In this document: in pieces, positions 906-56,691 of the stretch
How the letters are laid out: the number at the start of each line of letters is the position of its first letter
How positions within the stretch are numbered: position 1 is the stretch's first letter
Assembly: GCA_964354805.1 (NCBI GenBank)
Contig: CAYHBD010000035.1
Span: 22,829 to 86,828, forward strand
DNA: 64,000 nucleotides
Source of the DNA: an uncultured archaeon
GTDB lineage: Archaea > Iainarchaeota > Iainarchaeia > Iainarchaeales > GCA-2688035
Direction of reading: 5' to 3'
Translations under genes and position numbers: made by a program
Notes under the pieces: generated by a model
Database searches by the model: none
Told to the model about the DNA's origin: nothing
Seen by the model: only the letters and a program-made list of their open reading frames with translations

Positions 906-1364
906 TTGAACGAGCAAGGTCAGGAGAGCAGCGGTTTTCGCCTGCTGGTGGAAGCAGTGATGGTTGTCTTTATTCTGGTGATAATCTTTGCTGTCATAAG
1001 CAAGCTGGACGAAGTAACGCAGCAGGCAAGCGAGAAAAGGCTGTTTGAAGGATTCAGCAAAGCAGTTGACAGCCCAGATGGCTCTGTAATATTCGAAAAA
1101 GACCTTGTTTTAAGGGAGGGCAGTGTTTACAGCAGAACAGCTTTTGCCGAGTCTGCAACCAACATTGAGCCAGACAGCATTTTAATTCAGGCAAGCAACA
1201 ACAGCGCCTTTTTGCTGCTCAACAACGGTTCAGCCGTTGAAATCAGGTCACTTGTTTCAACAGATGTATACTACCAATGCAAAACAGAGTATGAGGACGG
1301 CGAACGCAAGATTAGCTGCACTATCAGCTTTGGACAGGAATTGAAAGAGGGCGAACCAGAATAA
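906..1364 (+). CDS. Pilin-like protein with class III signal peptide
   Basis: Probable TTG start at 906 after GAGGCGAT gives MNEQG|QESSGFRLLVEAVMVVFILVIIF (G|Q, then a hydrophobic helix); directly downstream of the GspF-like gene. ORF track start is 837. Confidence 0.65.
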   Translation: MNEQGQESSGFRLLVEAVMVVFILVIIFAVISKLDEVTQQASEKRLFEGFSKAVDSPDGSVIFEKDLVLREGSVYSRTAFAESATNIEPDSILIQASNNSAFLLLNNGSAVEIRSLVSTDVYYQCKTEYEDGERKISCTISFGQELKEGEPE

Positions 1365-1419
1365 CAAAAAACAGCTCATCAGCTTTGGGCAGGAATTGAA
1401 AGAGCAGAAAACAGAATAA
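1323..1419 (+). repeat. Tandem duplication of the pilin-like gene 3' end
   Basis: 1323-1364 (ISFGQELKEGEPE*) is repeated at 1378-1419 (ISFGQELKEQKTE*); both are followed by CAAAAAA(AA)CAGC. Confidence 0.9.
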
Positions 1420-1515
1420 CAAAAAAAACAGCCTGTTTTTAAACAAGAACAAATTTCTGCGCAGGCTTTCTTTTCCAAACGTTTTTATACCAGTTTTGCT
1501 TTCTATATTCCATAT

Positions 1516-2064
1516 ATGGTTCTGGAATTAATCGGCGAAACAGCCTTTGCCCTGATTGACCTGCTCAGAATGGCGCTGATAGCGGCAATTCCGGCATTTG
1601 TTCTAACACTCTTGGGGCAAGCGCTGTTCAAAAAAATCAGGGGAAAAAAGAAGAAAACCAGTTGGATTGTTGCAGCATTTGCAGCAAGCTATAGTGTAAT
1701 GCTGATTGTTGTTTTCTTCCTCTACCTTTTCCCGTTATATCTGGGTTTCGTTGAAAGCGATTTGGCAAAGCAAACCCCACTTCCAGAAATGCAGCTGACA
1801 GTGGTTGACTATGGCGTTGCATTCTTTGCAACAATTGTAAAGAATTTGATAAGCGCGGTAGTGCTAACAATCCTATTGCTGCCATTGCTTTTCTTTGCCT
1901 CTTTTGTAAGCGAAAAAATAGAGGAAAGGAAAAAGCTGCCTGCACTGGCAAACACCTTTATTGCGGTTTACTGCACAGCATTGCTTGCCTGGGTGATTAT
2001 TTTGTTTGTTTTCCCCTGGGTGCTTAGCGGAATACTTTATTTGCTTTTCTGGAGCCAAATATAA
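1516..2064 (+). CDS. Hypothetical polytopic membrane protein
   Basis: 182-aa ORF with about 4-5 hydrophobic segments. Confidence 0.8.
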   Translation: MVLELIGETAFALIDLLRMALIAAIPAFVLTLLGQALFKKIRGKKKKTSWIVAAFAASYSVMLIVVFFLYLFPLYLGFVESDLAKQTPLPEMQLTVVDYGVAFFATIVKNLISAVVLTILLLPLLFFASFVSEKIEERKKLPALANTFIAVYCTALLAWVIILFVFPWVLSGILYLLFWSQI

Positions 2065-2080
2065 AAGGAGAAAAACGAAA

Positions 2081-54063: not shown

Positions 54064-54072
54064 TAACCAAAA

Positions 54073-54195
54073 GAGTTTTGCATAAGCAAGGAAGGAGTTT
54101 GGCAAAAGCAATGGAAACATTTTGCAGAGTTTGGCGTAAGCAAGGAATACCTTCTACAGGCCTGCAAGCAGGCGAAGCTGGTGTCATTTGGCTAA
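54073..54195 (+). repeat. Three stacked diverged copies of the polB 3' end
   Basis: 54073 EFCISKE; 54095 EFGKS; 54127-54195 EFGVSKEYLLQACKQAKLVSFG* vs gene EFDISKEDLLQGGKQAKLASFN*. Confidence 0.9.
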
Positions 54196-54257
54196 ATATT
54201 TGAAAAGAGAATCTTTTTATTTAAAAAGGTTATAATGAGTATAAAGAAGTAATTGAA

Positions 54258-56531
54258 ATGAGGGCAGTGAATTTTTTTTTAATTCTTGCTTTTGCTGCAT
54301 TAATGTTTTGCCCAGCGAATGCTCTCCTGTATGAATTGTGCGATTCAGCAAGCCTTGACAGGAGCACTAAAACTTTGGAGTGCAGAATAACTGAACCGAA
54401 ATATTATTTCACCCAGCAAAGCGTTGACAATTTTTGGAAAAGCGTCTTAGCGGACCAGAACTATTCCCGGGGAAAAATAGAAACTGTGCATTGGCTGATT
54501 GTTTCTACAACCATTAACATAATTGAAGACACTGCTTTTGTCAAGGACAGCGACATAAATGTAGCTTGGGATATAACATTGAAGGGCGACGCCAATATGT
54601 CTTTTGAAGTGAATTGGGACAGCAATGCCTATGAGGAAAAAGAGGGGACAGTTACTGCAATAAAGGTAACAAAGGGCAGCAGAAAACCCCTTGTCCTTTT
54701 TTCACCAGGGAATGGAAAGACTACTGTCAGAAACATTTCTTTGCTTAATCCAAGCGGGTTTTTAACATACATCGCGGGAACATTGGTTAGACCAATGCGT
54801 ATTGAAATAGAGGGCGACTTGAACATTGATGGCGCCAGCATTGAAAACGCCGCAATAGTGAAAGCGAAAAACATTTATTTGACTGGTTCCGGCAGCTTGA
54901 AAACAATTGGCAAAATTGAAGCAAATAACCTTTCACTGAACAACAGGGGCAAAATTGATACTATCGGCGCTGCCAACCAAATAGCGATTGAATTGCGAAA
55001 CAGCTCAACCGGGCTGCAACTGGACAGGTACAGCATCATAAACGATTTGCTTGGCAGCATTATAGTTGACGGCAACATCGGGCTAAACTTAAACAGCATA
55101 ATCAAAACATTAACTCGTGGAACACAGGACAACATTGAATCAGTTCAGGCAAAAAACCTGACAATGGTTGACAGAAGCGAAATCAGCGGGATAGGCGGCA
55201 CGCCTGGCACAATTGTTTTACAGGGCGGTCTTTCAATGGACCAAAACAGCATAATATCAGCCCTGCAAGGAAACCAAATAAAAAAAATTGAGGCAGATTC
55301 GATTGCTTTGACAGGTGGAAGCAAAATTCAGAACATCACTGGGCTGATAAAGGTAAACAGGGGCAGCCTATTCAAATTGTCAAACGGATCAAAGATAGTT
55401 TCATTGGACGGAAACATTGAAAGCTGCGCTTCAATTTCATTGGATGGAAATGAAACTCAAATAATATTCTTGGATTACAACAAGGAAATAAGGGCGCCGT
55501 CAATTGATTTCAACAACGGCGCTGGAATAATTTGCATTGGCCCGGCATATTGCACTTACAATTTCTTAAAAAAGGTATGTGCCAGCAAGCCAAGCGCAAT
55601 TCTTGAAATCAGCGGTTCACAACAGGGGGCTGCTCCGCTAACTATTCAATTCAACGGCAGCTGCGCTGCGCCAGAAGGCATAGCCAGCTGCAAAATAAGC
55701 TACGGTGATGGAAACGAACAAGAATTCATCGGCGGTGCAATGCACACATACTTTGAAGCGGGAAACTATATCACAACCTTGAGCGCGATTGATTCAAGCA
55801 ATCTTACTGCAATTGCAACAAAAATGATAAGTGTTGCAGCAGGCGCAGGAAACCAACCGCCTGATAACACCCAGCCACCGCAGAGCCAGGGCACAGCTAC
55901 AGTAGAAATCACCATTTTGCCCACTGCTGTTGAACAGGGTGGCGAAGTATATGTTGAGATTGATTCGGATGCTGAAGCTGAAACTTTTTCCCTGCAAAAT
56001 GACGCAGGCCTGCCTGTTATGACAGGCGTTCCAAGCACTTTCCCAGCAAAGGCAGGACCCTTTAAAACGTTTGCTGTGAGCAAGCCTGGCACTTACCATT
56101 TCACTGTAAGCGGAACAACAAAGGATGGCAGACTTTTTTCAGCGCAAGCTGCCTTTGAAATCCTGAAAAAAGAAGGCGCTTTTTCTTTTGACGCATTCTT
56201 GCCCCTGCTCATTGTTTTCATCATAGTGCTGGTTGTAATAGTTTTGCTTGCAAGAAAGCTGATAAAAGAGGGAAAGCTTGGGGCAAAAAAAACAATGCTG
56301 CCTCCAGGGGAAAAGCCAAAAGAAGGCGCTGGAAAATGGGCCTGGAAAGGCCCAACAGAAGAGAAACCCCAAGCTGCACAGCCACAGCAGCCACCAGCGC
56401 CGGCACAGAAAACAGTGCCACAAACCCCAGCCCCGGAAAAACCAGCTCCAATCACTCCAGCAGCACCAGGAGAGCTGCCACCATGGCTGCAGGGAGAGGA
56501 AGAAGAGGAAGAAGGAAACGGAACAATTTAA
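54258..56531 (+). CDS. Surface protein: beta-helix-like repeats, PKD-like domain, TM anchor, Pro-rich/acidic tail
   Basis: Signal peptide; repeated 'L.L...S.I' units; 'APLTIQFNGS...ISYGDG...HTYFEAGNYITTLSAID'; TM near the C-terminus. Confidence 0.85.
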   Translation: MRAVNFFLILAFAALMFCPANALLYELCDSASLDRSTKTLECRITEPKYYFTQQSVDNFWKSVLADQNYSRGKIETVHWLIVSTTINIIEDTAFVKDSDINVAWDITLKGDANMSFEVNWDSNAYEEKEGTVTAIKVTKGSRKPLVLFSPGNGKTTVRNISLLNPSGFLTYIAGTLVRPMRIEIEGDLNIDGASIENAAIVKAKNIYLTGSGSLKTIGKIEANNLSLNNRGKIDTIGAANQIAIELRNSSTGLQLDRYSIINDLLGSIIVDGNIGLNLNSIIKTLTRGTQDNIESVQAKNLTMVDRSEISGIGGTPGTIVLQGGLSMDQNSIISALQGNQIKKIEADSIALTGGSKIQNITGLIKVNRGSLFKLSNGSKIVSLDGNIESCASISLDGNETQIIFLDYNKEIRAPSIDFNNGAGIICIGPAYCTYNFLKKVCASKPSAILEISGSQQGAAPLTIQFNGSCAAPEGIASCKISYGDGNEQEFIGGAMHTYFEAGNYITTLSAIDSSNLTAIATKMISVAAGAGNQPPDNTQPPQSQGTATVEITILPTAVEQGGEVYVEIDSDAEAETFSLQNDAGLPVMTGVPSTFPAKAGPFKTFAVSKPGTYHFTVSGTTKDGRLFSAQAAFEILKKEGAFSFDAFLPLLIVFIIVLVVIVLLARKLIKEGKLGAKKTMLPPGEKPKEGAGKWAWKGPTEEKPQAAQPQQPPAPAQKTVPQTPAPEKPAPITPAAPGELPPWLQGEEEEEEGNGTI

Positions 56532-56691
56532 CAAAGTGAGGAAAAAGGGGAAAGCAGGCAAATTTAACAGGCAATAAGAGGAAGGAACTAGCCAATTTAA
56601 AAGGAAAGAGAAAAAGAAGCAAACAAGGCATTTAGGCTGTTTTTAAATAGGTTTTGAACCAAGATATTTTTTCGACTTCAGGGGTATTCTA

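Follow-up and report, generated by a model that had tools for sequence, protein, structure and literature searches.

Copies of gene 3' ends that lie just downstream of the genes they resemble, which we call echoes, are real and unusually dense in the genome of an uncultured DPANN archaeon of the Iainarchaeota, where about one gene in thirteen has one. A preliminary description of the window, by which we mean the whole stretch of 64,000 nucleotides (nt) analyzed here (contig C35:22829-86828), had read them as traces of a recurring process that replaces or duplicates protein C-termini. We favor the explanation that echoes are fossils of short local DNA duplications, retained where no protein was damaged and subsequently decayed, and we give it a probability of about 0.65. 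On our best reading they reflect an ordinary mutation process at high density and not a new genetic system. The source genome (G000) is a short-read metagenome-assembled genome (MAG) of 1.38 Mb in 49 contigs, 88.5% complete and with a guanine plus cytosine (GC) content of about 44%. A simple codon-usage caller predicted 1356 genes in it, making 86% of the DNA coding and 171 kb non-coding.

Echoes at gene 3' ends

How often is a gene followed by a copy of its own end? We compared the final 75 nt of every gene with the 250 nt downstream by Smith-Waterman alignment (+1/-1/-3/-1.5), and a score of at least 16 was counted as an echo. Across the whole genome 85 of 1118 genes (7.6%) have one, compared with 0.45% when gene ends were aligned with the downstream DNA of other genes, 0.36% with the reverse complement of their own downstream DNA and 1.1% with the upstream part of the same gene. 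At a score of at least 20 the echo rate is 3.9% and the control rate 0.04%. A comparison with controls had been proposed as a check in the preliminary description, and the frequency of echoes is not equal to that of the control. The downstream spacer is 101 nt for genes with an echo and 54 nt for those without; the orientation of neighboring genes is the genome average, convergent neighbors being equally frequent.

The same repeats beyond gene 3' ends

Echoes are not specific to gene 3' ends. The 5' counterpart, a copy of the first 75 nt of a gene in the DNA upstream of it, occurs at 3.8% of genes. An annotation-blind scan of the whole genome for local direct repeats no more than 200 nt apart found 276 clusters. 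Of these, 61 lie at 3' ends and 25 at 5' ends; 81 are purely intergenic, and 99 are coding, many of the last in giant repetitive proteins. There is about one cluster per kb in non-coding DNA and 0.085 per kb in coding DNA, window hit rates for local repeats are 2.2% and 0.45%, respectively (less than 0.1% in a reversed-sequence control), and the per-kb density of local direct repeats of 30-70 nt is 10-18 times lower in coding DNA. Local repeat pairs take in 7.9% of all non-coding bases.

The geometry is uniform. Median repeat offset is 54-56 nt in all non-coding classes, with few offsets above 70 nt, and the periods found by Tandem Repeats Finder (TRF) range from 20 to 60 nt, with an upper limit like that of the offsets. 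The copies lie head to tail, with a gap of at most 6 nt, in 59 of 177 non-intragenic pairs, and the remainder are spaced; among the 85 3' echoes, 25 have a gap of at most 8 nt. In the 31 strict tandem pairs that run across a stop codon, the fraction of the unit that is coding varies evenly between about 0.1 and 1.0, which is the result expected of random duplications after removal of those that disrupt an open reading frame (ORF).

Decay of the extra copy

The extra copy evolves as free DNA. The pooled ratio of non-synonymous to synonymous substitution rates (dN/dS) between gene end and echo, with the neutral expectation taken from the observed substitution spectrum, is 0.56-0.64 (confidence interval (CI) 0.44-0.75). 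One constrained and one free copy would be predicted to give (1+omega)/2, or about 0.55-0.65, with which the pooled ratio agrees; it also lies past the value of 0.5 that the preliminary description had taken as the mark of simple duplication and decay. Targeting or replacement of C-termini is not supported, in view of this ratio, of the presence of the same repeats at 5' ends and in intergenic DNA, and of the stop codon, which may fall at any position of the unit in strict tandems.

Differences between gene and echo are mildly enriched at third codon positions (0.21, versus 0.15 and 0.14 at the other two), and the mismatch matrix is symmetric, transition-dominated and not adenine-specific. Echo copies are diverged by 7-30%. 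They had been described as codon-aligned, which is true insofar as the copy takes in the stop codon, but the offsets from gene to echo show no preference for the frame (29:22:34 modulo 3, a random distribution) and 21 of 57 echo alignments (37%) contain insertions or deletions (indels). Stop-codon readthrough or in-frame extension was rejected on the strength of the random offsets. Opposite the stop codon of the gene, 57% of echoes carry an identical stop, 25% a different one and 18% a sense codon. The share of same stops matches ordinary codon conservation (53-67%), and the three fates together are close to what is expected if the gene accepts only stop-to-stop changes and the echo accepts all.

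Short tandem duplication as the probable source of echoes

We propose that local duplications, mostly head to tail and with units of about 25-70 bp, arise genome-wide at a rate unusually high for the family. A duplication wholly within a gene would damage the protein and be removed by selection, whereas one that runs across a stop codon would leave the first copy with its stop and the gene intact, and the second copy would become free DNA behind the gene. This free copy would then decay by substitutions, indels and more small duplications, giving rise to stacked arrays, while selection would hold the resident gene end fixed. The molecular route, which may be replication slippage or microhomology-mediated tandem duplication in lagging-strand synthesis, and the reason for the high rate in this lineage are matters of inference. 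A recurring, lineage-specific duplication bias had been the third candidate mechanism of the preliminary description, and it is the one that the excess over control and the patchy distribution among relatives (below) support.

Echoes in the window

Eight echoes had been named in the window. With empirical p values derived from 600 other downstream regions, all eight have p <= 0.05; five of them are individually solid (p <= 0.007), and three, those of the PAC2 gene, gene 51100-51576 and the PKD-domain gene, are marginal. The copies are as follows.

1323..1377, plus strand: tandem unit 1 of the pilin-like gene 837-1364, a 55-nt unit comprising the last 42 nt with the TAA stop and 13 nt beyond
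1378..1432, plus strand: echo of the pilin-like gene 837-1364 (tandem unit 2); aligned part 1378-1419, 36/42 identity in the coding-derived part, stop kept, score 30, p < 0.002
6960..7007, plus strand: old echo of the gene 2006-6958 for a 1650-amino-acid (aa) protein; 32/48 identical to 6895-6942, score 16, p = 0.007
7711..7763, plus strand: strongly decayed middle copy of the ribK gene end; score 10.5, shuffle p = 0.008
7764..7819, plus strand: echo of ribK (7060-7710); 43/57 identical, with a 1-nt deletion and its own TAA at 7818-7820, score 27, p = 0.002
9024..9061, minus strand: possible weak echo of the PAC2 gene 9073-9888; score 11.5, p = 0.018, marginal
45605..45631, plus strand: echo of gene 45179-45568; 25/28 identical, TGA changed to TAA, an unrelated 38-nt spacer between the copies, score 20, p = 0.002
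51033..51055, minus strand: possible weak echo of gene 51100-51576; score 13, p = 0.03, marginal, absent from strain fragment L148
54073..54124, plus strand: partial secondary copies of the first part of the polB echo; a 22-nt tandem (TRF period 22), 20/22 identical to the start of the distal echo
54125..54195, plus strand: echo of polB (51643-54063); aligned part 54127-54176, own TAA, score 24, p < 0.002
56538..56635, plus strand: possible echoes of the PKD-domain gene 54258-56531; purine-rich, with three ends resembling ...AATTTAA about 34 nt apart, p 0.016-0.07, marginal

TRF independently reports 1323-1426 as a 55-nt unit in 1.9 copies with 87% matches. The copy scored behind the PKD-domain gene, at 56602-24 (p = 0.05), is purine-rich DNA of low complexity. 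The stacking of copies noted in the preliminary description is borne out by the middle copy of ribK and the partial middle copy of polB.

Are the echoes of polB and ribK foreign alleles or former states of the resident genes? The consensus polB end of 25 other DPANN genomes is ...EFGYS.EDLI.GGKQ..L..F. followed by the stop codon. The resident gene keeps KEDL and GGKQ, in place of which the echo has KEYL and ACKQ; the echo keeps the Q..L..F motif, and has lost the conserved D and GG. It also keeps EFG and the terminal G, at which the resident gene carries D and N, both derived. The resident ribK end matches all invariant residues of nine orthologs, whereas in its echo R and I stand in place of the invariant or nearly invariant KK and G in place of a nearly invariant S, and there is a frameshift; the echo does have TIT like the closest relatives, where the resident gene has TIL. 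Both echoes are thus broken at invariant residues yet ancestral at some others, which points to a degraded earlier state of the same gene, and the idea that echoes are functional foreign alleles does not hold for these two genes. The orthologous polB loci of the 25 other DPANN genomes have no echo.

The FEN1 gene of the source genome (C10:43119-44168) has a PIP-box-like end, QSRLSQWG and stop, followed by its own echo, QSRLDQGG and stop. The C-terminal PIP-like tail thus belongs to the sequence that was copied, and in the polB echo the Q..L..F motif is likewise kept.

Relatives and a strain fragment

By PolB comparison the relatives of the source genome are Candidatus Iainarchaeum and other DPANN archaea, the closest at species level having 68% PolB identity. 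The same pipeline was applied to samples of 100-390 kb of relatives, with the following rates of 3' echoes.

G000, source genome: 7.6%, control 0.45%
G004, same family: 3.4%, control 0.34%
G013, same order: 2.9%, control 0.43%
G011, same family: 1.5%, control 0.6%
G009, closest relative: at background
G010, G003 and G020: at background

The trait is lineage-variable, being strong in the source genome, weaker in two relatives and at background in four. The density of non-coding repeats ranks the relatives in the same order. In G014 (25% GC) the control rate is as high as the echo rate, and no 3' echoes were found in 50 kb of E. coli. FEN1 is present in the source genome and in 18 of 20 relatives, so that its loss was rejected as the cause of the high rate. 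In a 35-kb sample of sister genus g2 (G012:C148 and G001:C105, L105-L107), 4 of 14 genes scored as having an echo, with a control rate that is also high at 7%.

A metagenome scan found one near-identical fragment of 1.5 kb. This strain fragment, L148, comes from another metagenome and is about 93% identical to the source genome over three genes, and its intergenic region is unalignable. Where the window has 50995-51099, the corresponding intergenic region L148:634-690 is 42 nt shorter and has no echo. On this comparison, the turnover of spacer DNA in the lineage is much faster than that of genes.

Pairs that end at the stop codon

Several observations weigh against short tandem duplication and decay. 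In about half of the echoes the similarity breaks off exactly at the stop codon: mean identity is 0.83 over the last 12 coding nt, 0.47 over the first 3 nt after the stop, and reaches a baseline of about 0.3 within 10 nt. Among young pairs (at least 90% identical), about 8 of 15 have 10 unrelated nt after the stop, compared with about 10% expected under uniform placement. There are perfect pairs with unrelated flanks, 27/27 at C16:6939-7520 and 31/31 at C42:47379-48497, for which a plain tandem model would predict similar flanks. Spacers are decayed copies of the repeat in only 6 of 24 cases, and no relation was detected between them and either the DNA that follows the echo or the coding DNA that precedes the repeat, comparisons that have low power for short spacers. 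Microhomology arms are in no clear excess over a misregistered control among the 12 usable ungapped strict tandems, the copies being too old for arms to be demonstrable. The 38 listed strict tandem pairs have an identity of at most 0.96, and at most 0.93 in non-coding DNA; no very young full-length tandem copies are seen, so ongoing activity is not demonstrated. Lastly, no cause of the high duplication rate was found, FEN1 being present.

What might explain the sharp loss of similarity at the stop? It may result from faster decay outside the gene, since only one partner decays in the coding part, whereas both decay and gain indels in the flank. With an indel in 37% of echoes the register after the stop would be lost quickly, and the unalignable intergenic region of L148 suggests that spacers in this lineage diverge beyond alignment at about 93% gene identity. 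Perfect pairs with unrelated flanks are outside this explanation, and may instead have come about by illegitimate recombination with diverged alleles or by short-patch conversion templated by the gene end. Tight operon junctions were rejected as the cause of stop anchoring, as they cover at most about 18 of 40 anchored cases; some echo stops still overlap the beginning of the following gene by the native 4 nt.

Many stop-anchored pairs consist of the repeat, an unrelated spacer of 10-60 nt and the repeat again, and intergenic DNA also has perfect pairs of 22-31 nt. The spacers are unique sequence in 23 of 24 cases, with no multi-copy family elsewhere in the genome; the other (1/24) carries a hairpin repeat, AAGCCTTTT...AAAAGGCTT, with many genome copies, and a second spacer contains what looks by eye like a hairpin of this kind. 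On these counts, filler DNA from other parts of the genome was rejected as the source of the spacers. Tentatively, and as a rather unlikely case, the stop-anchored class, in which a copy of the last 25-40 nt ends at the stop codon, could be the mark not of decayed tandem DNA but of illegitimate recombination that occurs often between diverged strains, or of short-patch conversion, at the boundaries of coding and non-coding homology. If so, gene ends would have been repeatedly replaced in this DPANN lineage, and the displaced ends would record past allele exchange.

Alternative explanations

Extended to echoes in general, the replacement of gene ends by illegitimate recombination with diverged alleles, homology-facilitated or by unequal crossover between strains, is in our view unlikely, and it is the alternative that survives best. 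Incoming DNA would pair in conserved coding sequence and join illegitimately tens of nt away, so that the old end, together with the DNA native to its downstream side, would come to lie behind the new end and the donor spacer. Similarity that ends at the stop beside an unrelated spacer would then represent the conserved coding and unalignable intergenic DNA of two alleles, and L148, with about 93% gene identity, an unalignable intergenic region and no echo, also speaks in its favor. dN/dS is also lower in the most similar pairs than in older ones (0.41 vs 0.75), and a few echoes differ mostly at synonymous sites, as at C9:147846-149171, with 9 synonymous and 3 non-synonymous differences. However, heterogeneity of dN/dS from locus to locus is weak (p = 0.035), with an extreme locus expected by chance, and the stop-anchored class has a dN/dS of 0.49 (CI 0.32-0.68), equal to the 0.53 of strict tandems. 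Echoes were also examined for preservation of the peptide through other codons, and no such signature was found beyond chance. Allele replacement does not predict the short uniform offset (less than about 70 nt) that is common to intergenic and 5' repeats; the anchoring of 5' echoes at the start codon is suggestive but weak (15% vs 8%); the polB and ribK echoes are degraded and not functional alleles; and double decay plus indels in the flanks may mimic the abrupt boundary. Homology-facilitated illegitimate recombination, the second candidate of the preliminary description, is not needed for the bulk of echoes, although the coding-limited similarity of the stop-anchored subset fits it.

Tandem duplications might instead be refreshed occasionally by short-patch gene conversion from the constrained gene end while their flanks drift. 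This would explain near-perfect repeats with unrelated flanks, and the ribK array, in which the distal copy is better kept than the middle one; a dN/dS near 0.5 is compatible with it. Conversion would have to act between repeats of merely 25-50 nt, however, and perfect cores are not surrounded by shoulders of lower identity, and we regard this possibility as quite improbable.

It is very unlikely that echoes are functional, whether in 3'-untranslated-region regulation, as backup stops or as upstream signals of the next gene. Part of an echo may belong to the ribosome-binding region of the next gene where the 4-nt overlap at the echo stop is retained, but frames are random, decay is at the rate of free DNA, there is no conservation in relatives, and convergent neighbors are as frequent as genome-wide. 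Mobile-element footprints, left by integration into gene 3' ends with a replacement end or by off-target CRISPR-type integration, would have the repeat-spacer-repeat form that is seen, with 22-40-nt repeats and 10-45-nt spacers, and could account for the hairpin repeat found in one of the 24 spacers and by eye in a second. The repeats belong to at least 85 different genes and are distinct for each, the other 23 spacers are unique, neither Cas1 nor reverse transcriptase was found in a genome that is 88.5% complete, and mismatches are not adenine-specific, which together make footprints extremely improbable. Integration into gene 3' ends had been the first candidate of the preliminary description and is set aside on the uniqueness of the spacers, bar the one hairpin case, and on the missing Cas1 and reverse transcriptase; the failure to find Cas1 likewise led to rejection of CRISPR-like off-target integration. 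Finally, an assembly artefact of a mixed-strain metagenome bin, conceivable in a short-read MAG of 49 contigs with a repeat unit of about 55 nt, near a common k-mer size, is in our view just as improbable, because copies differ by 7-30% with indels, the 10-18-fold avoidance of coding DNA is explicable only by natural selection, and echoes recur in the independently assembled G004 (3.4% vs 0.34%).

Other features of the window and the genome

Pfam matches in the window identify ribK with a helix-turn-helix domain, PAC2, a family-B DNA polymerase and the PKD-domain protein; no Pfam match was obtained for the pilin-like gene, the 1650-aa gene or two small genes, and an Rfam scan of the window gave no match. 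The longest ORF of polB appears to begin with TTG at 51643. Between 10169 and 44574 on the plus strand there are four giant ORFs (2875, 2713, 2469 and 2508 aa), interrupted solely by a 558-aa ORF at 18998-20674, and the 1650-aa ORF (2006-6958) is on the same strand. The four giant ORFs probably encode giant surface proteins of the DPANN type, and none has a downstream echo (p > 0.4).

Elsewhere in the genome, C30:73819-73907 and C10:19339-19430 contain perfect or near-perfect 25-nt direct repeats that include TATA-box-like sequence (TATATAAG, TTATATTATAGG) and are 38-41 nt apart. They lie in the upstream spacers of two minus-strand genes, 73112-73799 and 18919-19330, and may be duplicated promoters. 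The spacer C9:82690-82738, behind gene 82132-82689, holds the hairpin repeat AAGCCTTTTC(T)n...(A)nGAAAAGGCTT with a third purine tract after it. This repeat has 30 blast hits in the genome and also fills the intergenic region L148:640-690. At C28:55346-55548, two direct repeats of 21-22 nt surround a putative tRNA gene, recognized by eye, with a presumed intron that appears to contain hairpin-repeat-like sequence.

Significance and comparison with known systems

Echoes show how non-coding DNA grows in a very small archaeal genome, in which about 8% of spacer DNA lies in repeat pairs. As dated fossils of gene ends they could be used to polarize substitutions, or as a source of neutral rates of substitution and indel formation for an uncultured lineage. 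They are also a warning for annotation, in that intergenic DNA behind a stop codon can look like a conserved peptide without being a gene, a recoding signal or a mobile element. The strong differences between sister genera constitute a natural experiment on the replication or repair trait that sets the rate of short duplication in archaea.

Homology-facilitated illegitimate recombination has been described in Acinetobacter, Pseudomonas stutzeri and Streptococcus pneumoniae. Two junctions, the first homologous and the second illegitimate, could leave a displaced gene end behind the new one, with similarity that stops at the coding boundary, but the decay statistics do not require such an event, and it predicts neither the short fixed offset nor the intergenic repeats. 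The template and variable repeats of diversity-generating retroelements, which are common in DPANN archaea, also place a copy of a gene 3' end just downstream. Unlike in those systems, echo mismatches are not adenine-specific, dozens of unrelated housekeeping genes are involved and the copy includes the stop codon; with no RVT_1 match in the genome and no adenine bias, such a retroelement was rejected.

The genome of Ehrlichia ruminantium reportedly has intergenic tandem repeats throughout, with actively variable copy number. Like the archaeon studied here, it is a small genome in which non-coding DNA has been lengthened by many locus-specific tandem duplications; in contrast to the actively variable copy number of Ehrlichia, the copies in this archaeal genome are diverged. 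Yeast rad27/FEN1 mutants accumulate duplications of 5-108 bp, a size range like that of the echoes. The closest parallel is with microhomology-mediated tandem duplications, which are likewise head to tail, short, depleted in coding DNA, sometimes present in three or more copies, and subject to near-neutral decay. A 2026 survey (PMC13167724) reports the de novo origin, in bacteria, archaea, fungi and viruses, of short tandem duplications with microhomology on their flanks; it describes them as near-neutral and depleted from coding regions, and links them to Okazaki-fragment maturation via Rad27/FEN1. The archaeal echoes differ from them in being unusually dense for the family, old (7-30% diverged), without demonstrated arms, and in about half of cases ending exactly at the stop codon. 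In the light of this comparison, the echoes are a dense new example, in a DPANN archaeon, of a known mutation process.

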